Shown piece after piece: positions 5,980-64,000 of a stretch of 64,000 bases of DNA. Both the position numbers and the translations under genes were made by a program. This DNA comes from Eledone cirrhosa (Eukaryota): contig OZ024740.1 in the NCBI GenBank assembly GCA_964016885.1, positions 174,530,001 through 174,594,000 of the forward strand. Reading direction: 5' to 3'. Under the pieces are notes generated by a model. It did no database searches and was not told the origin of the DNA. It saw only the letters and a program-made list of their open reading frames with translations. Every line of letters starts with the position of its first letter. Position 1 is the first letter of the stretch.

Positions 5980-7275
5980 TCTTTGAGTCTCAGTCATTGA
6001 TGTTAGTTAACTGGAAAGTTTGTTGAAATGAATATCAAGCCACTACCTGCAGCCTCAGATATTCAGGACGTATCGGAGGGTTCTTGCTGTTCCCAGCAAG
6101 CATGCCTTTTGACGCGTTCCAAAAAGCGTGAAGGGGCCAATTTTCTTTAACCATCCCTGGAAACTTTTTGAGATAGTACCTAGTGCGCCTATGACAATCG
6201 GGACCACTTTGACTTCATGGCAGTTCCAAATCCTTTTTACCTCCCACTTTAAGTCCTGGTATCGGTTAATTTTCTCCCTCTCCTTCTCTTGCACTCTAGT
6301 GTCGAATGGGCAGGCCACATCCACAATCAGGCACGATCTTTTTTCTTTGTCCAAAGCCACCAGGTCAGGTCTATTGTGTTCCAGTTTCTTGTCCGTCTGT
6401 ATCCTAAAATCCCACAGCACCTTCACCTGATCGTTTTCTATCACCGACTCTGGCTTATGCTCATACCACTTCTCAGAATGTGGTAAATTGTTTACTTTGC
6501 ATAGGTGCCAGTGGATCACCCTGCCCATCACATCATGTCTCCAGCCCTTATAGTGAGTCTGGGCTAGGTGTTTACACTCGGATACAATGTGAGCCACAGT
6601 CTCCTCTCTCTCTCCACAGATCCTGCACAGTGGGCTAGCCTCCTCCTTGTAAATATGGTGTTTCAACCACTTCGTTTTGAGGGCCTGCTCTTGCGCGGCC
6701 ATTAACATTCCTTCTGTAGCCTTTTTAAGGTCTCCTCTTTTCAACCAGCTCCATGTCTGTGGATCTCTGAATTCAGTTTTCTCAAAGAAGGTACTATGAA
6801 GGGATTTTTCATGGAGGCTGCTCTTTCTCCTTGTTGTTATTTCCTCCTTGGACATCCCATGATCTATTGTCCTCTCCTTCAGTACAATTCTGAGCATTGG
6901 CTCCTTACTATCAGTCACGTATTTGTGTAGGTTGTTTTTCTCCATCTGAACACAGTCCTCTATGCTGATAAGACCTCTTCCACCTTCAGATCTCCTTAAG
7001 TAGAGTCTATCGACATCACTCCTCTTGTGGAACATGTTGTAGATAGTCAATAGCTTCCTAGTCTTCCTATCCATTTCTTTTTGTTCAGCAACATTCCATC
7101 TCAAAATTCCCGCACTGTACCTAATAATAGACACAGCTCGGGAATTTACTGCACTTATGGCATTCCTACTGTTCAGATGTGACTTTAATACGCTCCTTAC
7201 TCTCCGAATGTATTCAGATCTTATCAATTCCTTCATTTTTTTGTTTTTGATGTCATCAGCCTCCAGAACACCCAA

Positions 7276-7276
<1 letters not shown>
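5980..7276 (-). mobile_element. 5'-truncated R4/Dong-like non-LTR retrotransposon inserted in (TAA)n
   Basis: ORF with RT thumb region, CCHC knuckle and REL motifs, short 3' UTR, (TAA)n on both sides. TAA-repeat targeting is known for Dong. Confidence 0.85.
6055..7276 (-). CDS. C-terminal part of a REL-endonuclease retrotransposon ORF (thumb, zinc knuckle, restriction-like endonuclease)
   Basis: GGRGL; CRICGEREETVAHIVSEC; RHD; WDFRIQTD; RPDLV..IVDVACP; KEREKINRYQDL; PIVIGALG. Frame is open to the stop at 6055. Confidence 0.85.
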
Positions 7277-7317
<41 letters not shown>

Positions 7318-7318
7318 A

Positions 7319-7503
7319 GGGCGGTGGATTGGCAGTATCGGTAGAGGGTCGGACGCCATGCTTTCCAGCATAGTTACGTCCCTTTACGATCGGAGTTCAA
7401 ATCCCGCCGAGGTTGACTTTGCCTTTCATCCTTACGGGGTCGATAAAATAAAGTACCAGTAATACACTGGGTAATTGCTGGCCTTGTGCCTAAAGTAGAA
7501 ACA

Positions 7504-7767: not shown

Positions 7768-8126
7768 TTATCGAACTTCAAGCACTGAAACTACGAGGGT
7801 CTTCGGCAGTCGACTGTTGAGAGGGGACTGTCCTGTGTTTCGTCAGTTTTTCTGTTGACTTCAGCCAACATTTATTACTGATTTTGTATGATCTTAGCCA
7901 GATGAGACGTTTTTTCAAATTTATATATATATTCCTATTACCCACTCTACTACCCTAAGTATTGAGTACTTTGGTGCGTTATGGTCCACCTGGTTCCTTA
8001 CCACATTTCCTTCGTTATATATATATATATATATATATATAGTATGTAATTCAGTGAATTACTGGTGGTGGTATTAAAACAAGCACTCTATGCACAGGCA
8101 GAGTGTTTATATTAAGAAGAAAAAAA

Positions 8127-8355
8127 ACGATGAAGTTTCGTTTACAAGTATTACATTTTTTATTGTATATCGACCTGTTACGCGCGTTTCGCAGTTGATT
8201 GGCTCAAGATCACCCATAGGAGTTAGAGATCCGATTCCATTATCAATACGCTCTTCGGCCTGGTAATGTGGCCACAAATATAGTATTTGTTCAAACGCGC
8301 ATAACAGGTCGATACACAATAAAATTCTAATACATGTAGACGAAACTTCATCATG
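8127..8355. mobile_element. Foldback element with a degenerate HHR on the minus strand (related fragment 49110-49245)
   Basis: Inverted arms ~8127-8190 / 8293-8355. Minus strand reads CCGAAGA-GCG...CUGC-GAAA-CGCGCG-UA-ACAGG. The 49125 copy has CUGAAGA-GCAG. Confidence 0.55.
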
Positions 8356-8404
8356 TTTTTAATATATATATACATATATACATACTAGATCCATAACCAG
8401 GGCA

Positions 8405-9785
8405 GTGGTGAAGAGTGTCTCGGACAGGATCTCCAGCCTATCCGCAAGTAAGCAAATATTCAATAACCACGCGGAATATTACAACGCAGCTCTAAAGAAG
8501 GCGGCACATGGACAAAATATAACATATAGTCCGAAAAGCCGGGATGGGGATAGACCAACAGACACCCACAACCGCGTTTCCCGGGGGGGGGAGGGCGAAC
8601 CCTAACAATACAGGCAGAGCAGAATCAAATAGGCACCATGTGCCCGACACCACCACACGGGCGGTGGGGACTAGTGCGATTGACCACGAGATGGACCACA
8701 TTATGAGTAGTAGTCTCAGGCGTGTCGCTAACCACCCCAGGACGGACGACCCCAACCGCAGGACACGTTGGGGGGGAGGGGGGAACAGGCGACCACCCCA
8801 CGATGGATCTCCCGGGGCGGACAACGACCACCCCACAAATTCGGGCCGCGAAGATAACAAAAAGCATAGAGCCCAAAGGGGAAGCAACAGTGCGGAAATC
8901 ACCAGCAACCCAACAAATCTCCAACAAATCACGAAGCCCCCGACCCACACATATAGGAGGAGACACCGAAAAATCACGTGGTACAACCCACCCTACTCAG
9001 CGGCCCTAAAGAAAAGCTGGCCCAATTATTCTTTGGAGCACTTGACAAATGCTTCCCGAGGGACCACAGATACCTCAGGCTCTTCAACAGACGCACTGTG
9101 AAGCTTTCGTATTCCACCACGAGAAACTTGGCCCAAACACATAGCTAGCATCAAGAGAAGTAGGCTTAAAAACCACACACAACCAGAAGATGGCAATACA
9201 AACACTCAGTAGAACCATGTGAAAGGAGGGAAGGGGAGACCCAGAGCCCGCCCAAGAAACCCAAACAAACCCGAGGACCTCCCACCGAGCCTGGGGGAAG
9301 ACCAACATGTAACACATAACGGGAACCCTAATCTAGGCACGCAGAGGCCGAACACCCTCTGCAACTGCAGAAACCCCGAATCATGCCCCCTTGGTAATGA
9401 ATGCCTCAAGAAGAACCTAGTGTACGGTTGTAGGGTTAAAACCCCCAACTCCGAACACCTCTACATAGGAGCCACATCAACGAGCTTTAAAGACCGCTGG
9501 TACAACCATCGCCATTCATTCAAGAAGGAGGGCAAAAGGAAAAGCACAGCTCTCTCCGACCTGATCTGGAAGCTTAAGCTGGACAGGACCCCATACTCTC
9601 TGGTCTGGTATATAATCAGGAAAGTACCACCCGATAAAGGGGGTTCTTGCATATGCAAACTATGCCTGAACGAGACCCTCGAGATACTAAGAGGTGGAAG
9701 CGGCCTGATAAACCTCAGAACCGACTTCTTCGGGACATGCAGACACCTTAGAGCCGGGACCTTTCTCAAGATATATGGACAGTAG
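8405..9785 (+). pseudogene. Frameshifted Penelope RT-thumb / linker / GIY-YIG endonuclease
   Basis: RISSLSASKQIFNNHAEYYNAALK; RKITWYNPPYS; CNCRNPESCPLGNECL; VYGC..YIGATSTSFKDRWYNHRHSF; STALS; CKLCLNE; CRH. Split over three ORFs. Confidence 0.85.
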
Positions 9786-10220
9786 CAACACAAGAAGATG
9801 TGAACTCCCCTCAAGCTATAGGGACTTCTACTGAACATGAAAACACCTCTCGGCCAGACCTCCCTCAAGCTATATGGGCAGTAACAAACCCTAGGTTGTG
9901 AACTCCCCTCAAGCCATAGGGAACAATAATTTGGCCAGCATCTATATAACACAAACACTTTTTAATTTACTAGATTTCTGATTTTCAAGTTCCAATCTTA
10001 AATCTTGATTTCTCTTTATTAATTTGTTATTTGTTTTCTGCCCTCTTCACTGTATCACCTTATATTTATTTTCAAGTTGAGATTGATTATAACACAAACA
10101 CATTTAGTTTGATTATCTCATCTTAACATCTTGTCTCATACCAATCTATCCAACATATTCTGACCTTGAGATTGGTTAAGCACGCACACACTTTATCCTA
10201 CATTATTTCTCACTTCACCA

Positions 10221-10409
10221 GGGCGGTGGATTGGCAGTATCGGTAGAGGTTCGGACGCCATGCTTTCCAGCATAGTTACGTCCCTTTATGATCTGAGTTC
10301 AAATCCCGCCGAGGTTGACTTTGCCTTTCATCCTTACGGGGTCGATAAAATAAAGTACCAGTAATGCACTGGATAATTGCTGGCCTTGTGCCTAAAGTAG
10401 AAACAATTA
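10221..10409 (+). mobile_element. SINE family A with target-site duplication
   Basis: Full-length copy. attatttctcacttc(a/t)cca is repeated at 10202-10220 and 10406-10424. Confidence 0.9.
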
Positions 10410-11145
10410 TTTCTCACTTCTCCATATTCATTTTCATTACTTTTTCACCAATTTTTCATTTATTCTTTATTCTTTATTCTTTATTCTCTATTTATTTATT
10501 TATTTTCAAATTATACAAATTATAATAATTATTTTATTATATTATTTATTTATTTTCTGTTTTCTTCATTTATTGCCTTATATTTCTTCATATACATGGA
10601 AGAAGCCCCCCCCCCACCACCACCACCACTATGATGGTGGCTGGAGGGATGAAGAAAAAACACACACTGGATACTTCTAAATTGTTAGCACCAGCAAGAT
10701 ATAAGCTGACCACAACACCAACAACACTACCAAAATAATGGTAGAGGTCAAATGTACTGAACAATAGCAAGCAAAAACACTACAGGGAGCCTCATCCCAG
10801 AAAGAATTCTATAGACTTCTGACTGAGGAATGCTCTCAGAACTGACCAATGGGAAGTTTGACACTTTTTTTGTTATTTTGTTCCTTTAACACCTTGTCCC
10901 TTCTACCATTCTATCAATTTTTTAAGCTAACTCCAGCAATAACAACACTTAGAATGAGGAATGTTCTAATAACTGACCAATGAGAGGAGAAGAGGACCTT
11001 TTACACTGAAATTCGTTTGTTTGAATTCATATGACTCCAGTTCCTCAGTGAAATAACAACCCAACAAAGAACTGGGCATATCAGAATATTGACAATATTA
11101 TACACCTAAACAACATATGTACTTGTCTATACCATACTAATTCAA

Positions 11146-11207
11146 ACTGCCTGAAGACTGAAGAGGTCACAGCCAAAGATGGCTGTCACTGAAATATATA
11201 TAGCAGT
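11146..11207 (+). ncRNA. Minimal HHR with a duplicated CUGAAGA, in the presumed Penelope pLTR
   Basis: ACUGC-CUGAAGA-CUGAAGA-GGUCACAGCCA-AAGA-UGGCUGUCACU-GAAA-UAUAUA-UA-GCAGU. Confidence 0.75.
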
Positions 11208-11254
11208 AATAAACGAAGCTAAATTTTAATCATTTGACTTTTATTTAACTTTTT

Positions 11255-11309
<55 letters not shown>

Positions 11310-11312
<3 letters not shown>

Positions 11313-11428
11313 AAGTATGACCTCGACGGCAGAGCTCAAGCCGTTTCGACGGCTATTTCTTAACGCACCAGAGTATTGAGTACTCTGGTGCGTTATGGCC
11401 TCTCTGGTTCCTTACCACAATTCCTTTG

Positions 11429-11430
<2 letters not shown>
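11310..11430. mobile_element. Family B TA-inserted fragment (HHR 3' half plus tail); related copies 7931-8017, 17911-18080, 19399-19549, 33414-33578
   Basis: Shared gacggcagagctcaagccgtttcgacggcta and tail gagtactctggtgcgttatgg...ggttccttaccaca. Confidence 0.7.
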
Positions 11431-11505
<75 letters not shown>

Positions 11506-12074: not shown

Positions 12075-12080
<6 letters not shown>

Positions 12081-12345
12081 TAATATAGAAATTGATTCTA
12101 CAGGGCTAGAACTGTTTCATTCGAAAGAAATTATCGGGTAAACCGACTGTCATTGTAATATGGTTGTAGTATGTTTTCTGGTGGTTGGGGAAAGTGATGG
12201 TTTTGTGGATGGGCAAAGATCGTTGATTTCTTTCGAATGAAACAGTTCTAGTCTTGTAGAAGACATTTCTATATTAAATTTGATGTTTACGCTCTACAAA
12301 TGTATTGAGTACCTTACTGTAGTTGCCCCCGATTGAACACAGGAC
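12075..12345. mobile_element. Family C foldback (HHR 3' half GAAACAGUUCUAGUC); related copies 19763-20000 and 46025-46068
   Basis: Inverted arms ~12078-12130 / 12226-12278, flanked by microsatellites. Confidence 0.6.
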
Positions 12346-17852: not shown

Positions 17853-18178
<326 letters not shown>

Positions 18179-19398: not shown

Positions 19399-19403
<5 letters not shown>

Positions 19404-19546
19404 AACAAGTATGACCCCGACGGCAGAGCTCAAGCCGTTTCGACGGCTATTTCTAGAAATAGCCGTCGAAACCCACTCTACTACACTAAGTATTGAGTAC
19501 TTCGGTGTGTTATGGTCCATCTGGTTCCTTACCACAATTCCTTCGT

Positions 19547-19762: not shown

Positions 19763-20000
19763 GATTCCTGATGATTTCAAATGAATGAAACAGTTCTAGT
19801 CCTGTAGAATCTCATCTATATTAAAACTGTTATACTCTGCTATGTATTGAGTACCTTACTTACTGTGGTTACCTCCGATTCAACCCGGAATAACGTATAT
19901 ATATATATATAACCACAGTAAGTAAGGTACTCAATACAAAGCAGAGTATAAATATTTTAAATATAGAAATGGCTTCTACAGGACTAGAACTGTTTCATGC
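19763..20000. mobile_element. Family C inverted pair with an HHR-like core
   Basis: CUGAUGA (19768-74)-UUUCAAAUGAAU-GAAA-CAGUUCUAG-UC-CUGUAG. 19783-19870 is mirrored at 19912-19998. Confidence 0.6.
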
Positions 20001-20340
20001 GGGAGAAACCATCATATATGTATATATAGATGCAGAGAAATAGAATGATAGCTTGATAAGATATATTATAGGCATATACAACTCTATACATGTATATATA
20101 TTTGCGTATCAATATAGTGACATAGGTGCTTCTATCTTATCAAGCTATTATTCTATTTCTCTGCATCTTTCACAATTTCTCTTTCTATATCTTTCGTTTA
20201 ATCTCTACCTCCTTTTTTACACGGTGACACACACTCCGATTATTGGAGAGTGTGTGTGTTTGATTTATATGCTTACGTCGTGGGCTTTGTGAATGGGTCA
20301 TATTGATGCTTTCATAATATTTTCGTATGAGTATATATTA

Positions 20341-25109: not shown

Positions 25110-25829
25110 GTTGATTCACAAACTGAGCGTTGGAAAGCTTAAGAGTTGCGGCTACTATCACTTTCCGGGTATTAACAGCCATTTCTCTAAGAGAAGAAGA
25201 GACACTGATAGAAGAAATGAGAAAGAGATATAGAAGAAGAAGTGCCTCCAGTACTGGAATGGTATTTTTTTATTCCCCGGGTGGGGAACTCAGAGCACAG
25301 AGAGGTGGGAAAATGTTTTGATCAACGTTACAGCGTTGGCACAGATGAAATATATTCTCTAAAGGTAGGCGGTAGAATCATCCCAATAACCCAAAAATTT
25401 GTGTGTCGCAAATTGGCAGTGTTGTTAGTACGTCCTATAAAGAGAGCATTTAATAGGACACACAAATTTTTAATAGAAGCTTAAATTAAGATTCTAACAC
25501 GGACTTATGGGAGAGACCATGCACTAGAATTCCCAAACTTGTTTTGGGTTATTGGGATGATTCTACCGCCTACCTTTAGAGAATATATTTCATCTGTGCC
25601 AACGCTGTAACGTTGATCAAAACATTTTCCCACCTCTCTGTGCTCTGAGTTCCCCACCCGGGGAATAAAAAAAATACCATTCCAGTACTGGAGGCACTTC
25701 TTCTTCTATATCTCTTTCTCGTTTCTTCTATCAGTATCTCTTCTTATCTTAGAGTAATGGCTGTTAATACCCGGAAAGTGATAGTAGCCGCAACTCTTAA
25801 GCTTTCCAACGCTCAGTTTGTGAATCAAC
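25110..25829. repeat. Long inverted repeat (arms 25110-25396 / 25542-25829, ~145-bp spacer)
   Basis: ~287-bp arms with only a handful of mismatches. No HHR, no TA flanks and no clear TSD. Confidence 0.9.
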
Positions 25830-27184: not shown

Positions 27185-27769
27185 AGTAAACGAAAAGAGC
27201 ACAGTAAATGATGCAGTACAATGAGGATGCATATTAATTTAGGTCTTAATATAGCAGGAAAAGAGTATTTACATTAGTCCTTCATCAGAATATAGAATGA
27301 GTAATAAAAGAAGAAATAAAAAGATAAATAGAGCGAGAAGAGGATGAAACAGAAAATACAATTTTTAAAGAAAGTATGGGTGTGCTCATTCAGCCATTAC
27401 AGAAATATTTGTGTTGTGGGGAGTGATTAAAAGAGACCGAGTCATATCAAGAGAATATATATACGCAGAAAAATAAATAGATAGATAGATAGATAATTCT
27501 CTTTTTATTTGCCACCAGGGCATCAAAAAGTGGGACAAGTACAATGGGGGGAGTTTACATAAAAAGGCATCCTCAATAAGGAGGAGGGAATAACAAGATA
27601 TAAAAATAAAATAAAATATAACAAAATAAATTTTATAACAAAATCCTCAATAGGAAGGAGGCGCCTTGGGGGGTCACACACACCCCCGAAAAAAAGTGTG
27701 CAACCCTTCTTCTCAGGAGCACAGAGAGGGGGTGCTCCCTTGACCTTTCATCTTCCTCACCTATAGTCT

Positions 27770-30700
27770 GATGTAGAGTAAAGGCCCATTCACACGGGCC
27801 ATTCTCGCCACTTTCACCCACCTTTCATAAAAACGACTGGGGTGCAGCACCTCTCTCTCCATCCTGATCCTTCTTCCGAAATGATATCGGAAGAAACGGA
27901 CCAGTTGTTGGCCAGAGAGAAAGGTGTCTGTCCTCAGTCATTTCAGACGCGTCCACCATACAACCTCTTTCGCCATGGCTATTACGCACAGAAACACCGC
28001 CTCTCCTTCGTTTTTGAAGAGGAGAGGCGGCTTGATCGTTACAATAGACTCGGTGGTCAACCGGATCGGTCCCACCCTTGATAGCAGTTGTTCGACATAG
28101 CCCCACAGATCGGCAATGCCCGAGCAGTGTACCAATGCGTGTGCAACGGTTTCCTCGTCGCACACGCATCTGGGACAGATCTTTTTCGAGGGGTCCCTAC
28201 CCGGGCGCCCGTGTCTGTAGAGCCTTTCTCGAACGGGCAGAGCCCCACGGTAGCACTGCCAGGCCAGGGACCTCTGGAAGTTATCCATGGGTCCCGGGCT
28301 GAATGTCCTACCGAACAGGTTGGCCAAGTCGTCTTCCTCCATGCCTAAGGCTTCTCTGAGGGCGTCGTCGCACCTGCTAACCACCAGCCCTCTCTAGAAT
28401 GACGAGGTGGATTCTCCACTGACAGCCGGGTCCGCATGCCAGAGAGCCGTGAGCGCCTGGGCACACACGGTGTGCCAGGTGCCCAGTTTTCTCGGTCTTT
28501 GCTTGACCCAGGATTGCAGCTCGGTGAGTGAGACGAATCTGGGAAAGGCTCGCCTCACAAACGGGGCCCACACCGGTTGGCCGGTGAGGAATACCTGGAG
28601 GTGCCGTAGCCTTAATGCGAGTTTACGTATCATTAGCCACGGCATCCCCAGCCCTCCTTTCGAAGGGTGTTGACAGCAGATGGATCTCCTCACCATAGGA
28701 GCCCGCTTCTTCCAAAGGAATTGGAAGAGTGCGTGCTCCATTTTGGCGAGCGTTTCCCTTGGGCAAGGCACAACGGTCAGGCGGTAGTAGATGACGGACG
28801 CTATATAAGTGTTCGTCACCTCCGCCCGACCTTTCAGGGACAGTTTGCACTCATCCCACTTCTGGGTCAGTGCAGACACCCTGTTCGTTACCTCACCCCA
28901 GTTCTTCTCCACCTGGAGGTCTGGTCCGAACCAGACCCCGAGCAACTTCACCGGGCCCTCCGTCCAGCGCCCGACGACGCCATCGGAGGGCATCGATCTG
29001 CCCCTCCACGTGCCGAGTTGCAGACCGATCGACTTGTCCCGGTTCAGCTTAGCCGCTGTAAACCTTTCGTACTCCTCCAGTAAGGTGCCTATCGCCCCGA
29101 TTTCCGAGGCCGTCGACACCATTACTGTTACGTCATCGGCGTAGGACGACACCGCTTTCCGCAATCCCGGTTCCAACGGGATGCCCTGCAACAACTCCAA
29201 CTTCCGCAGCAGTGGCTCTAGAGTCATTACATACAGAAGGGAGGAGAGAGGGAACCCTTGTCGGATGGACCGTGCGATTTCGAACGGCTCTTAGAGGTAG
29301 CCGTTCACCTTGACCCTAGAGCAAATGCGGCTGCTGTGCATGGCATTGATCCAGCCCCTGAAAATGGGTCCCAAGCCTGCCGCCGCTAGCACCGCATCCA
29401 GGTAACCATGGTCGACCCTATCGAACGCCTTAGATTGATCCAAGTTGATCAGGGCCCCACCAAAGCCGGGTTCGTTCCCAACCCTCTCTATGATGTATCG
29501 CATGAGGTGGAGGTTGTCGTGGATGGACCTGGACGGGATAGCACATGTCTGCGCCTCTCCCACCAGGTTGCCCAAGACAAGCGCCAACCTCTTTGCTAGC
29601 ACCTTGGCCAAAATTTGTAACTCTGTATTTAGCAGAGTTATGGGCCTGAAATTATTTATATCGTCCCCCTTGTTCTCGTCCTTCCTCACTAGCGTGACTA
29701 CGCTTCGGTCACAGCACAGGGAATTCTCCCGTTCTGTTGCCAGTTGCAGTAGACCGCCTCGAGGAGATCGGGGAACAAGTCCGGCATAGCTAGATATAGT
29801 TCGTATGGAAGACCATCGAGACCCGGGAATTTGCGTTTGCCGCATTGGCTCAGCACGTCCTCTATCTCAGCGGCTGAAATCGGCTCCTCGCAGGACTTCG
29901 CCTCCCTGTCCGAGAGACGCGGCAGGCCGTCGAGGTATGGACCGAAGTCCACTTCCCCAACCGGCTCCCCGCCCCTTCCGAACAATCTTGCAAAGTGCTT
30001 TTGAAAAGCCTCGCACATCTGCTTAGGTTCAAGGATCACCCGTCCATCCTGGTCTCGCAAAGACCGGATAGTGGATCTACTCCCTCTTTTGGCTTCTGTC
30101 ACGCGGGCCCAGCTAACAGCTTTGGTCCCCTCGTTTCCCAGAGCACGTATTTTGCTTCGGACGATGCAGCCTTCGTGTTTCGCGTCGAAGAACTGGCCCA
30201 GGGCCGTTCTCGACGCTAGCATTCTGGCCACGTCGCCGCCTCTAATTGCCTCTTCTACACTATCTATTTCTATCCCTTTCCTTCCTATTTCTATTTGAGG
30301 CTAACTCCTTACTAAATTCTATAGAGACTACTCTAATCTCTCTTTTGAGAGATCCCCACCACCTGCTGTTGACGATGGCGCCCGTCAACCGCTCCTTAAC
30401 TAAAATGCTAATCCGGTCCCTGTAAGCCTTACTTGCCGGTAAGGACAAGTTGAGCTTCCAGTAACCGGGTCTCTGTCTATGCGTTCTGTCAAGGTTGACC
30501 ATGCAGGTCACTAACTTGTGGTCTGAATAGCCAGCCATGCGCATTTTTTGACAACTTAAACAGTCCTTATCCTTATTTCTAACTAAGAACCTATCTAGGT
30601 ACGACCTAGATGATCCGCTGCGGTTTGCCCAAGTCCAGGTTGGCGCAGTCGGAAAATCTAGTCGATGTCTATCGGCCAGGTCAAATCGACCGATTAACCC

Positions 30701-31198
30701 TTTGAGGCTATTACACCCCACTCTATCGGGACAGGCCCTTACGTAGTCCCAACGTGCATCTAGGATACCATTCCAGTCCCCCACTAATTGCAAGGAGCGG
30801 GACGTCCCTAGAAAAGTCTCTAGACGATGGAAGAAGTCCGGCCGCATTGACCCGAAAGGGCCGTAGACGGCTACCAGCCTAAACGCTCCGCCTTCACCAC
30901 TGCTAAGGTCCAGAACCACTAGTCGACCCTCCGGGTCCAAATGTACCGTCTGTGTTGCGAGACCCAGATGTTTTTGCAGCAGAACGACAACCCCACCCCC
31001 ACCTCCGGGCTGACAGAGAGATGCGTGCATCTCAAAGTCATCAAAGGTGGGGGCCAGCTGTCGCACGTTGCTGATCCGGGCCTCGCAATTAACCAACACA
31101 TCAATACGTTGTGACCTGAGGTCATTTAGCAGCATTGCTTGCTTCCAAGTTGAGCCCAGGCCACGCGCATTTAGACAGCCTACTCTTAGCATAGCCAT
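27770..31198 (-). pseudogene. Tx1-like ORF2 (APE endonuclease, reverse transcriptase, zf-RVT), several frameshifts
   Basis: GCLNARGL, VGDWNG, SYLDRF, YSDH (APE); PGLDGLPYE, FRPITLLN, LDQSKAFDRVDH, SYADDV (RT); CPRCVCDEETVAHALVHC. Confidence 0.9.
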
Positions 31199-31222
31199 GT
31201 TGGTGGTGAAGAGAAAAGGCAC

Positions 31223-34496: not shown

Positions 34497-34552
<56 letters not shown>

Positions 34553-34592
34553 GATATTAATAAATGGAAACTATATTTATAAAACCATATTT

Positions 34593-34655
34593 ATTTCATT
34601 ATATATATTTCAAGGATACCAAGTTACATTATGGTATGTCTTCATCAGACAAAAT
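34593..34655 (-). ncRNA. Minimal HHR (left arm)
   Basis: AUUUUGU-CUGAUGA-AGACAUACCA..UGGUAUCCUU-GAAA-UAUAUA-UA-AUGAAAU. Confidence 0.75.
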
Positions 34656-34756
34656 ACAATATATAACAGTTTTATAAATAGACATTGACGTACCCCTTTA
34701 AAAATTGACCGTTGCTTTTGGAGGCCATCATTATTTATAAAACTGTTATATATTGT

Positions 34757-34819
34757 ATTTTGTCTGATGAAGGCATACCATAATGTAACTTGGTATCCTT
34801 GAAATATATATAATGAAAT
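34757..34819 (+). ncRNA. Minimal HHR (right arm)
   Basis: AUUUUGU-CUGAUGA-AGGCAUACCA..UGGUAUCCUU-GAAA-UAUAUA-UA-AUGAAAU. Confidence 0.8.
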
Positions 34820-34991
34820 AAATATGGTTTTATAAATATAGTTTCCATTTATTAATATCGTATATCTACTCCAAATATTTATCGAGTGCTTTATATCAGT
34901 TATAAAAATATTTGCTTGTTGTATCCCAACAATTTAAATAGAACTTTTGCATATATATATATATATAAAATAAAATAATTAAGTCATATGT

Positions 34992-35035
<44 letters not shown>

Positions 35036-35083
35036 AAATAATTAAGTCAATATTTAAAATTTGGCTTCGTTTATTAAAGGTGT

Positions 35084-35138
35084 ACAGCTATATATATTTC
35101 GGTGACAGCCATCCTTGGCTGTGACCTCTTCAGGCAGT
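35084..35138 (-). ncRNA. Minimal HHR (left arm, one stem I mismatch)
   Basis: ACUGC-CUGAAGA-GGUCACAGCCA-AGGA-UGGCUGUCACC-GAAA-UAUAUA-UA-GCUGU. Confidence 0.75.
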
Positions 35139-35342
35139 CCGAATTGGTGTGGTAGAGACAGGTATACATGTTGTTGAGGTGTTTAACTCCGTCAATACAT
35201 CGATATGCCCAGTTCCTGGTTGGGTTGTTATTTCTCTGAGGAACTGGAATCATATTCGAACCCAACCAGGAACTGGGCATATCGATGTATTGAGTTAAAC
35301 ACCTCATCAACATGTATACCTGTCTCTACCACACCAATTCGG

Positions 35343-35397
35343 ACTGCCTGAAGAGGTCACAGCCAATGATGGCTGTCACCGAAATATATATAGCAGT
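35343..35397 (+). ncRNA. Minimal HHR (right arm, canonical)
   Basis: ACUGC-CUGAAGA-GGUCACAGCCA-AUGA-UGGCUGUCACC-GAAA-UAUAUA-UA-GCAGU. Confidence 0.85.
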
Positions 35398-35542
35398 ACA
35401 CCTTTAAACCAAAGCCAAATTTTAAATAGTTGACTTAATTATTTTATTTTACATTACTCCGGAGTAACCAAACCAACCTGCGTACTTCGTCGAGTGGTCC
35501 ATTCTGCATACTGAGGTGTCGGTAAACAGCCAACATATACTT

Positions 35543-35608
<66 letters not shown>

Positions 35609-44549: not shown

Positions 44550-44574
44550 TCCTTTTATATATATATATATATAT

Positions 44575-44941
44575 CCAGGGAGTGTAACTTGGAGTTACTT
44601 TAGGTTCACCCGGCTGAGCACTCGATGTTTAGGTTCACTTCAGTGTCGAGGTGTAGAGCTAGACAGAGTGTATTCTAGTGAAAAGATAACAAGGACTATT
44701 GGTTACTCCTTCATTACATTTATTGGTTGGTGACGCGCGTTTCGACACTGATCAGCTCAATGTTCGATCTGTATCGATCTTACCCGACTCTGTAATCTGC
44801 GGCTCAAGGGGTCCGTCGAGCCGCAGATTATAGAGTCGGCTAAGATCGATACAGACCGAAACTTGAGCTGATCAGTGTCGAAACGCGCGTCACCAACCAA
44901 TAAATGTAATGAAGGAGTAACCAATTGTCCTTGTTATCTTT

Positions 44942-50382: not shown

Positions 50383-50618
50383 ATAAATATATATATATAT
50401 ATATATAAGTATGTATACGTACATACATATATGTATACAGACGTACAGTAGTATGTATATATATATATATATACATACATGCACACATATATATATGTTC
50501 GTATGGATTCACCGAACATTTATTATAATGCTCGGTGTGTTTGTAAACAAACATCCCGAATTAAGCCGTACAGTGTCTAGCAACCATCGTTACTCATTTA
50601 TTCAACACTGATAAAGGA

Positions 50619-50661
50619 ACGCTGTACTAGTTTCAAGCTTATTAGCTATCGTCAGAAACGT
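50619..50661 (-). ncRNA. Minimal HHR (left arm, stem I mismatch next to the core)
   Basis: ACGUUU-CUGACGA-UAGCUAAUAAGCUU-GAAA-CUAG-UA-CAGCGU. Confidence 0.65.
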
Positions 50662-50933
50662 ATACCTTCCTGCCAGATGGTTGAACGTCTGAAAGTATAT
50701 ACTTTCCTTATGCATATTAACGGCTGAGCAGCCTAATTTGCATATCGAGTGAGTTAATCGGCCGGGCGTACCGAAAACGATAATCGGAAAAAATGTAACG
50801 AAATTTCATTTCTCACTCTTAGTACGGCTGTTACTTAAATATATGTATGTATACGTACATAGGCAGCTCAGCCGTTAATATGCATAAGGAAAGTATATAC
50901 TTTCAGACGTTCAACCATCTGGCAGGAAGGTAT

Positions 50934-50976
50934 ACGTTGCTGACGATAGCTAATAAGCTTGAAACTAGTACAGCGT
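50934..50976 (+). ncRNA. Minimal 43-nt HHR (right arm)
   Basis: ACGUUG-CUGACGA-UAGCUAAUAAGCUU-GAAA-CUAG-UA-CAGCGU. Confidence 0.8.
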
Positions 50977-51219
50977 TCCTTTGTCAGTGTTGAACAAATG
51001 AGCAACGATGGTTGCTAGACACTGTACGGCTTAATTCGGGATGTTTGTTTACAAACACACCGAGCATTATAATAAATGTTTGGTGAATCCATACGTACAT
51101 ATATATATATATACATACTACTGTACGTCTGTATACATATATGTATGTACGTATACATACTTATATTTAAGTAACAGCCGTACTAAGAGTGAGAAATGAA
51201 ATTTCGTTTCATTTTTCCG

Positions 51220-51591: not shown

Positions 51592-51690
<99 letters not shown>

Positions 51691-51965: not shown

Positions 51966-52108
51966 CATATATTTCGATTATGTGAATGTCTTCATTTATT
52001 AATATTCTGAATAATATTAATAACTTCAGAAAACTTCCTTGTAGAGTGCTTTTAATCTATTGTAAAACTATATTCATTGAGTAATCAATGAACCATATTA
52101 ATCTTTGG

Positions 52109-52295: not shown

Positions 52296-52604
52296 TAAGT
52301 AGAAGTTGTATTTAATTTGTTGGAAGTCCAACAAACATAAATGTTTATAACTGATTTAGAACACTCAACAAGTTACTGGAGTAAATATTCAATGATATTA
52401 AATAAATGGAAACTATATTTATAAAACCATATTTATTTTATTATATATATTTCAAGGGCAACCAAGAGAACATGTCTTGGTCGCCCTTAAAACAAACTTT
52501 GCATTTTATCTGATGAAAGCGTACCAATGTTGCCTTGGTTGCCCTTGAAATATATATATAAAATAAATATGGTTTTATAAATATAGTTTCCATTTATTTA
52601 ATAT

Positions 52605-52608
<4 letters not shown>
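52296..52608. mobile_element. Family E-related foldback (arms ~52390-52465 / 52536-52608) with a degenerate HHR at 52503-52564 (+)
   Basis: Shares aataaatggaaactatatttataaaaccatatttattt and the tail with the 34551 element. CUGAUGA at 52510, GAAA at 52547. Confidence 0.75.
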
Positions 52609-52660
<52 letters not shown>

Positions 52661-62866: not shown

Positions 62867-62892
62867 ATATATATATATATCTATCTATATAT

Positions 62893-63791
62893 CTCTGGCA
62901 AGCGGGCCAGGCCATCGGTGGAGAATCCACCTCATCATTCTATAGAGGGCTGGTGGCTAGCAGGGGCGATGACACCCTTGGAGAGTCGCTGGACATGGAA
63001 GAAGACGAACTGGCCAGCCTGTTCGGTAGGACTTTCGGCCCAGGACCAATGGACAACTTCCAGAAGTCATTGGCCTGGCAGTGCTACCGAGGGGCTCTAC
63101 CCGTTCGAGAGAGGCTCTACAGACACGGGCGCCCGGGCAGGGATCCCTCAAAAAAGATTTGCCCTAGATGCGTGCGTCACGAAGAAACCGTTGCGCACGC
63201 ATTGGTGCAATGTCCGGGCGTGGCTGATCTGTGGGGCTACGCCGAACGACTGCTGTCGCGGGTGGCGCCGATTCAATTGACCGCCGAGTCCGTGATGACA
63301 ATCAAACCGCCTCCCCTCTTCACAAAGGAAGCAAAGGCGGTTTTTCTGTGCGTAATAGCCATGTTGAAAGAGGTTGTTTGGTGGACACGATTGAAAGGTC
63401 TGAGGTCAGGCAACTTCCTCTCTGGCCATAGTCTGGTCTACTTCTTCCGATATCACTTCGGAAGAAGGATAAGAATGGAGAGAGAGGTGCTTGGCCACAG
63501 GCAGTTTTATGAAAGGTGGGTGATAGTGGCGAGAATGGCTCGTGTAAATGGGCCTTCTCTGTATACCATCCTGTAGGTAAAGAAGTAAAGGAGAGGGGAG
63601 CACCTTCTCCATGTGCTCCCCGGGCAAAGGATTGCACACTTTTTCGGGGGTGTGTGCAACCCCCATCACGTCCCTTCCCTTTTGAGGTTATTTTCGATTA
63701 TTTTCATTTTATACCCTTTTTACTCGATTGTATGTAAACTCCCCCTTTGTATTTGTCCCTTCTTTTTATGCCTTTATGGTAAATAAAGAAA
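62893..63791 (+). mobile_element. 5'-truncated Tx1-like LINE (zf-RVT plus 3' UTR) in (TATC)n
   Basis: GESTSSFYRGLV..PGPMDNFQKSLAWQCYRGALPVRERLYRHG..CPRC. Homologous to 27496-28445. The frame is intact here. Confidence 0.9.
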
Positions 63792-63815
63792 TATATCTAT
63801 CTATCTATGTATCTA

Positions 63816-64000
63816 TCTTCCAATTCCTTTGGAAGAAGCGGGCTCCTTTGGTGAGAAGATCCATCTGCTGCCAACACCCTTCCAACGGAGGGCTGGGCGT
63901 GCCGTGGCTGACGATGCGCAAACACGCGCTCAGGCTGCGACATCTCTACGTATTCGCCTCATGCTCGCCTCATGAACGGTGTGGGCCCCGTTCATGAGGC
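63816..64000 (+). mobile_element. Third Tx1-like copy, 5'-truncated, running off the window
   Basis: FQFLWKKRAPLVRRSICCQHPSNGGLGVPWL, starting directly after (TATC)n. Confidence 0.85.

Follow-up and report, generated by a model that had tools for sequence, protein, structure and literature searches.

For EN+ Penelope-like elements (PLEs), published work already describes inverted, 5′-truncated copies, often tailed at a single end, as well as TA targeting, hammerheads and octopus Hydra elements (PMC3846280, PMC8557442), and one of these accounts names the origin of PLE tandem and inverted insertions as an open question (PMC8557442). The same account describes the Hydra clade as generally <3 kb, with a C-terminal GIY-YIG, a hammerhead and (TA)n targets, and gives as its diagnostics the motifs RWK and DKT, no GxKF/Y, a CxCx5C linker, no CCHH, C-terminal CxxC and CxH, and insertion into (TA)n (PMC8557442). 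Metazoan PLE hammerheads are of type I, with a long helix II, a short helix I and a small palindromic helix III, and dual motifs on opposite strands, 100–700 bp apart, have been published (PMC4209133). In a different clade, the Poseidon protein PAc of Anolis, a predicted dimer, cuts and extends both strands of an AT-rich target and initiates at two positions on the RNA, one on either side of the tail; according to the available sections of that account, the start site in vitro is the same for either strand, coupling is not reported, and the two sites are not tied to inverted insertions (PMC11167929).

The locus described here, foldback F, lies in a 64,000-nt stretch of Eledone cirrhosa DNA (the window; contig OZ024740.1, positions 174,530,001–174,594,000). 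In L1 twin priming, a single RNA is primed from both target ends and joining of the cDNAs produces an inversion, the two arms being non-overlapping parts of the RNA and the second priming site arbitrary. Both arms of the insertions analysed here, in contrast, start at fixed 3′ sites and overlap. With Poseidon these insertions would share the two start sites bracketing the tail, the cutting and extension of both strands and an AT-rich target, and they share with published EN+ PLE insertions the head-to-head inverted, 5′-truncated copy, the tail often at one end only and some junction palindromes (PMC3846280, PMC8557442, PMC11167929). They differ from the accounts of EN+ PLEs, as far as the available sections go, in having tails of 90–104 nt in five families, against 30–40 bp in print, and in a one-end tail rule that is counted (78 of 81 pairs), with the tail equally on the shorter or the longer arm (PMC3846280, PMC8557442). 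Element class, inverted form and hammerhead were all known before; what is added here is the counted one-P-one-T rule, the finding that either arm may be the longer, and the rare variants common to partner arms. Neither a counted P/T rule, nor 90–104-nt tails, nor a two-ended PLE model was found in the literature searched, which was largely open-access.

Anatomy of foldback F

Foldback F spans 35029–35547 and sits in (TA)n. In alignments it is a head-to-head pair of 5′-truncated pLTR 3′ ends that face outward. The element has two 3′ end points, P at the end of the pLTR and T at the end of the tail, and TA or TC repeats follow both. The initial annotation had rightly recognised a foldback here and placed its end at 35545, overlooking that 35452–35547 also belongs to the element as its tail.

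35029–35261, minus strand: left arm of F, a 5′-truncated subfamily B pLTR that stops at the pLTR end (P) and directly abuts (TA)n
35255–35261, no strand assigned: inversion junction of F, placed by eye from sequence and alignment
35259–35451, plus strand: right arm of F, a pLTR whose truncation lies about 35 nt 3′ of that in the left arm
35452–35547, plus strand: 96-nt tail on the right arm of F only (T end), followed by (TA)n
35343–35397, plus strand: predicted type I hammerhead motif of the right arm (descriptor scan and fold), with predicted cleavage after 35392
35084–35138, minus strand: putative hammerhead motif of the left arm, with one stem I mismatch (sequence and alignment)

The window is AT-rich animal DNA crowded with microsatellites, which were masked before BLASTN. 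The reverse complement of 35036–35255 then aligned with 11029–11246 at 79.8% identity (228 columns, E=1.3e-43), as did the right arm, 35259–35450, with 11058–11252 at 76.8% (E=2.5e-27), bearing out the earlier claim that F is homologous to the segment 3′ of a GIY-YIG ORF in the same window. The inverted repeat within F covers 35031–35449 at 89% across 426 columns, the centre counted (BLASTN); the arms differ at about 3% plus indels and have three minor alleles in common. Judged by eye, the left arm resumes the family sequence past a 4-nt deletion at the junction and AAC (35259–35261) suits both arms, while our script leaves 3 bases unassigned. A target-site duplication is unreadable inside a repeat such as the (TA)n that flanks F. 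In a comparison of four DNA contig sets over 34600–35560 no piece crosses the junction of F, a result that says little for a repeat of such high copy number. Just left of F, between TA runs, a 21-nt piece at 34963–34986 is identical to the left terminus of F (P end) and may be either a minimal stub or a local duplication.

The right-arm hammerhead motif has a stem I of ACTGC/GCAGT, the core CTGAAGA, a long stem II, GAAA and a 2-bp stem III with a palindromic loop, the same architecture as that of metazoan PLE hammerheads, from which we see no essential difference (PMC4209133). The descriptor scan returned four matches in the window, against 0–1 in five shuffles; a strict descriptor missed the motif of F because its stem II carries a mismatch. 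No hammerhead appears in the window among the 150 of 223 Rfam matches listed, nor in a local Rfam search.

A Hydra-clade element with two subfamilies

The segment to which F aligns lies in a truncated copy of the element, which we place in subfamily A.

8381–9785, plus strand: putative Hydra-clade ORF of subfamily A, 5′-truncated and frameshifted, covering aa 429–894 of the intact ORF, with the GIY-YIG domain at its end and the RT core absent
9786–11028, plus strand: 3′ UTR of the subfamily A copy, with a SINE-like repeat inserted at 10220–10412
11029–11258, plus strand: P-ended 3′ pLTR segment of this subfamily A copy, with a 7-nt duplication in its hammerhead core

To ask whether this segment belongs to the element, the initial annotation had proposed looking for the same ORF upstream of independent copies. 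In all 30 loci picked with the GIY-YIG endonuclease peptide (29 plus the window's own), 11029–11252 follows the GIY-YIG ORF on the same strand, about 1.0–1.3 kb past the stop codon, with 92–95% identity in the other 29 loci, and the UTR between is colinear across the 30. The SINE-like repeat is a secondary insertion, since 26 of the 30 loci have none in the 10220–10412 interval; it occupies the same 3′ UTR position in three of the 30 (the window, L041 and L060), which suggests a preferred site or a sub-lineage.

A full-length unit of about 4.1 kb reads pLTR, 96-nt tail, short 5′ UTR, ORF of ~890 residues, 1.4-kb 3′ UTR, pLTR and optional tail, and the 96-nt tail sequence of F corresponds to that between the 5′ pLTR and the 5′ UTR/ATG in full-length subfamily A copies. 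At 15 subfamily A loci, most with pLTR sequence upstream (e.g. L065), the tail continues into the 5′ UTR. This partial tandem of pLTR, ORF and pLTR with an optional tail was observed in subfamily A copies.

One locus (L062) retains an intact open frame of 894 residues, with YRDD at 353 and YIG at 788. The ORF carries RWK at 39, DKT in place of DKG at 122, a CxCx5C linker (CNCRNPESC) at 754, CKLC (CxxC) at 852 and CRH (CxH) at 880; GxKF/Y is absent, as is CCHH, one cysteine lying between the GIY and YIG positions, and the listed flanks are of (TA)n. By these motifs we assign the element to the EN+ PLEs of the Hydra clade. The ORF had previously been called Neptune-type, a label we reject, as both the CCHH inside GIY-YIG and the CX2-5CxxC linker are wanting. 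A Pfam-type search of the full ORF gave no RT family match, an ORF fragment matched Pfam GIY-YIG at E=0.0013, below cutoff, and Atlas neighbours of the ORF carry GIY-YIG in part. The printed part of Hydra-1_Obim is alike motif by motif, compared by eye only (PMC8557442). That element is listed as 2507 bp without a pLTR (PMC8557442), whereas the family is young and abundant here and its unit, about 4.1 kb with an 894-residue frame and a 1.4-kb 3′ UTR, exceeds the size generally given for the clade.

F itself groups elsewhere. Its left arm is about 80–82% identical to subfamily A pLTRs and has a median identity of 95.5% (substitutions only) to 88 other subfamily B arms; F is up to 97% identical to subfamily B copies, against ~80% to the copy in the window. 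Subfamily B has its own endonuclease, ~85–87% identical to that of A in DNA, and among 30 loci picked with it the pLTR is in view at 22, 20 of which are nearer F than subfamily A. Subfamily B looks older and decayed, the longest open frame among its top 30 loci being 345 aa with no intact ORF among them. Sequence comparison thus places F in subfamily B, apparently the older sister of subfamily A, and the copy in the window is a cousin of F and not its mobiliser, a role suggested by the initial annotation that this copy could not fill because it lacks the RT core, is frameshifted and starts at residue 429, past the YRDD at aa 353. With no intact subfamily B ORF found, F may therefore possibly have been mobilised in trans by subfamily A.

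Two further loci deserve mention. At L061 (G000:C5:94329000-94338900), two near-identical subfamily B copies stand in direct tandem, 4.4 kb apart, with TA and unrelated DNA between them, which is probably a segmental duplication. At L069, an upstream stub that could pass for a subfamily B 5′ pLTR terminates in TA and represents a separate insertion.

Paired P and T ends and their possible origins

We compiled 99 distinct head-to-head pairs from 212 overlapping loci, which are best matches and not a random sample. Four of the 99 were left out as non-contiguous (three P/T and one T/T, the latter, L197, having a 68-nt TA run between its arms), and the 95 contiguous pairs comprise 92 P/T, three P/P and no T/T. 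Among the 81 pairs whose arms both extend to the pLTR end, 78 are P/T against 50% expected (p=3.3e-20), and the longer arm of those 78 is P in 40 and T in 38. The shortest arms measure tens of bases and the longest more than 4 kb; in 46 of the 92 P/T pairs the P arm exceeds the T arm by at least 20 nt, and 14 of the 92 have a tail-only arm. In P-long pairs (about half, F included), neither arm is a DNA copy of the other, because each has sequence that the other is without. None of the 95 contiguous pairs is a mixed A/B pair, and none has a TA run at its junction. Single-armed copies are many, with 19 of 87 termini unpaired in endonuclease-picked loci, some of these being missed pairs.

Three further families in the window have P and T ends. 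With tail-free queries, family G (at 51688) gave 15 of 19 rows P/T and no T/T, with a tail of ~95 nt, and family H (at 44678) gave 14 of 14 rows P/T, with a tail of ~104 nt; two of the G rows come from a single locus, and a pair of rows in G and another in H resemble segmental duplicates. For family E the query contained the tail and is biased toward T, and 16 of 20 rows were P/T with no T/T and a tail of ~90 nt.

34552–34950, no strand assigned: foldback E, with the P arm left, the T arm right, a ~90-nt tail and a hammerhead at 34764
35452–35547, 34860–34950, 52014–52108, 44574–44677, 12279–12345 and 11358–11432: segments with the GAGT(A/G)C motif

The GAGT(A/G)C motif, a candidate protein-binding signal, occurs in tail or tail-like segments of A, E, G and H and in two others, with one change in F itself. 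Hairpins were considered as possible marks of both start sites: those preceding T ends reach z=-2.0 to -2.5 in A, B and G, but in E, H and F itself the signal is weak, as it is ahead of P ends.

Rare variants tie the partner arms together. Doubleton variants fall in partner arms in 30 of 68 cases in subfamily A (1.6 expected, 22 pairs) and in 10 of 25 in subfamily B (1.1 expected, 12 pairs), and common polymorphic sites are concordant between partners at 166 and discordant at 19. Because rare variants and common polymorphisms both agree between partners, the arms have a common source. Gene conversion between the arms, or two RNAs transcribed from a single source locus, could alternatively account for the shared variants; RNA editing is rejected as their origin, as A>G is not in excess (3/61).

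Junction sequences vary from locus to locus, even at the 5′-truncation hotspot. Of the 95 junctions 83 were resolved and 12 were not; 40 are without filler and 43 have filler or unassigned bases. Microhomology of at least 2 nt is present in 24 of the 40 filler-free junctions, against 15% in the null, and some junctions are perfect palindromes at CATATG. The 5′ truncations of subfamily B cluster ~222–232 nt before the pLTR end (window 35250–35261, 11029–11035), where a palindromic CATATG closely precedes a 9-bp hairpin, and it is possible that the CATATG palindrome or a pause at the hairpin produces this hotspot. A transcription start at the ~228-nt hotspot is unsupported, since in 15 copies of full-length type the 5′ pLTRs show no clustering of their extents at that point.

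We think it likely that F arose from a TA target cut on both strands and from two reverse transcriptions of the same RNA, one per DNA end, at two fixed sites, a reading whose basis is genomic evidence throughout: the P/T complementarity, the staggered 5′ truncation, the shared rare variants and the excess of junction microhomology. A GIY-YIG/RT protein, probably a dimer, would cut both (TA)n strands; one 3′-OH would prime at the T end and the other at the P end of one template; each cDNA would halt early, independently of the other; and the cDNA 3′ ends would be joined via microhomology or filler bases to give the foldback. The two-end rule, the staggered arms and the shared variants argue against a simple self-primed foldback and favour two target-primed reverse transcriptions from one template, a reading that accords with the in-vitro behaviour of the Poseidon protein and its two start sites (PMC11167929). 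For two cDNAs to overlap on one stretch of template, either strand displacement or a multi-unit RNA would be required, and the proposal must also allow for the three P/P pairs, the 43 of 83 junctions with filler, and the single-armed copies. With less assurance, we lean toward a general statement for Hydra-clade PLEs, namely that two-ended priming is obligately coupled, a dimer on one RNA giving each (TA)n cut end one of two start sites ~96 nt apart, so that the inverted form and the one-sided tail are the same event and a large share of the MITE-looking foldbacks of this genome are its by-products. The near-strict one-P-one-T rule, the staggered arms and the shared variants yield the sharp prediction that the two start sites are coupled on the two target ends.

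The main rival to this dual priming is template switching to antisense RNA, part of a broader alternative in which one cDNA is made, foldback or a template switch (to itself or to an antisense transcript) yields a second arm from it, and the endonuclease cuts one end back to the pLTR boundary. Both ingredients have been proposed in print, self-priming on an antisense template in one account (PMC3846280) and a tail from endonuclease resolution of an intermediate in another (PMC8557442), and such a route accounts for the shared variants and the T-long pairs and fits the perfect CATATG palindromes at some junctions. Pure self-copying, however, cannot place the tail on the shorter arm, as the 46 of 92 pairs with the longer P arm demand, and the antisense-RNA version must stop exactly at the site unused by the first cDNA; we hold this alternative to be unlikely. 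Less probable by far is that the palindrome is a non-autonomous, retrozyme-like unit, transcribed and retrotransposed whole. Non-autonomous PLE-derived hammerhead repeats have been described (bioRxiv 10.64898/2026.07.22.740005), and both the hammerhead motifs on each arm and the many subfamily B arms that begin near one point ~228 nt before the pLTR end would suit such a unit, yet junctions that vary between loci even at the hotspot and arms of such disparate length do not.

TA tracts do gather several insertions, as with E beside F and with L197, so two independent, opposite insertions into the same TA repeat might be imagined; for contiguous pairs this is refuted by the TA-free junctions, the P/T complementarity, the shared rare variants and the lack of mixed A/B pairs, and we give it almost no weight. 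An equally slim chance attaches to F being a MITE or foldback DNA transposon with TIRs and a TA target duplication, or else an assembly chimera. The inverted arms with TA flanks invite the MITE label, but the arms consist of the 3′ terminus of an element with RT and GIY-YIG, the termini are asymmetric (P/T) rather than symmetric and fixed, and the centre or junction is variable, while the ~3% plus indels between the arms of F are unlike a read chimera. The initial annotation had already preferred a retrotransposed Penelope pLTR stub to a DNA transposon, and on this point we agree. F is an unremarkable, dead stub from a retroelement class already known, likely the by-product of one insertion event and not an element moving as a palindrome. 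Annotators of such genomes should test short palindromes with TA flanks for a PLE-stub origin before labelling them MITEs.

Other foldbacks and repeats in the window

The broader proposal that the foldbacks of the window are generally pLTR stubs holds in part. E (34552–34946) is the pLTR of a second Hydra-like Penelope family, whose tail leads into an ORF ~50% identical to the first (L231, L241). Families G and H obey the two-end rule, although no ORF was found within 1.5 kb at 30 loci each. The foldback at 25110–25829, a 288-bp inverted repeat of 98% identity, does not fit, because it has no TA flanks and no full-length second copy among 43 genome matches; it is a different kind of foldback.

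A larger foldback at 50408–51216 carries a hammerhead on each arm and has its right-hand extension repeated in inverted orientation in the centre (50789–50861). At 436–927, 8121–8360, 12078–12345, 17913–18078, 19403–19546, 19769–20014 and 52303–52609, further foldbacks or stubs associated with TA contain hammerhead-like half cores and probably represent other PLE families. Fragments of other non-LTR retrotransposons lie at 6055–7383 (minus strand), 27683–31222 (minus strand) and 62892–64000 (plus strand); among them are a frame of 442 residues that matches zf-RVT weakly and an element bearing an RT, of which there is a second, partial copy.
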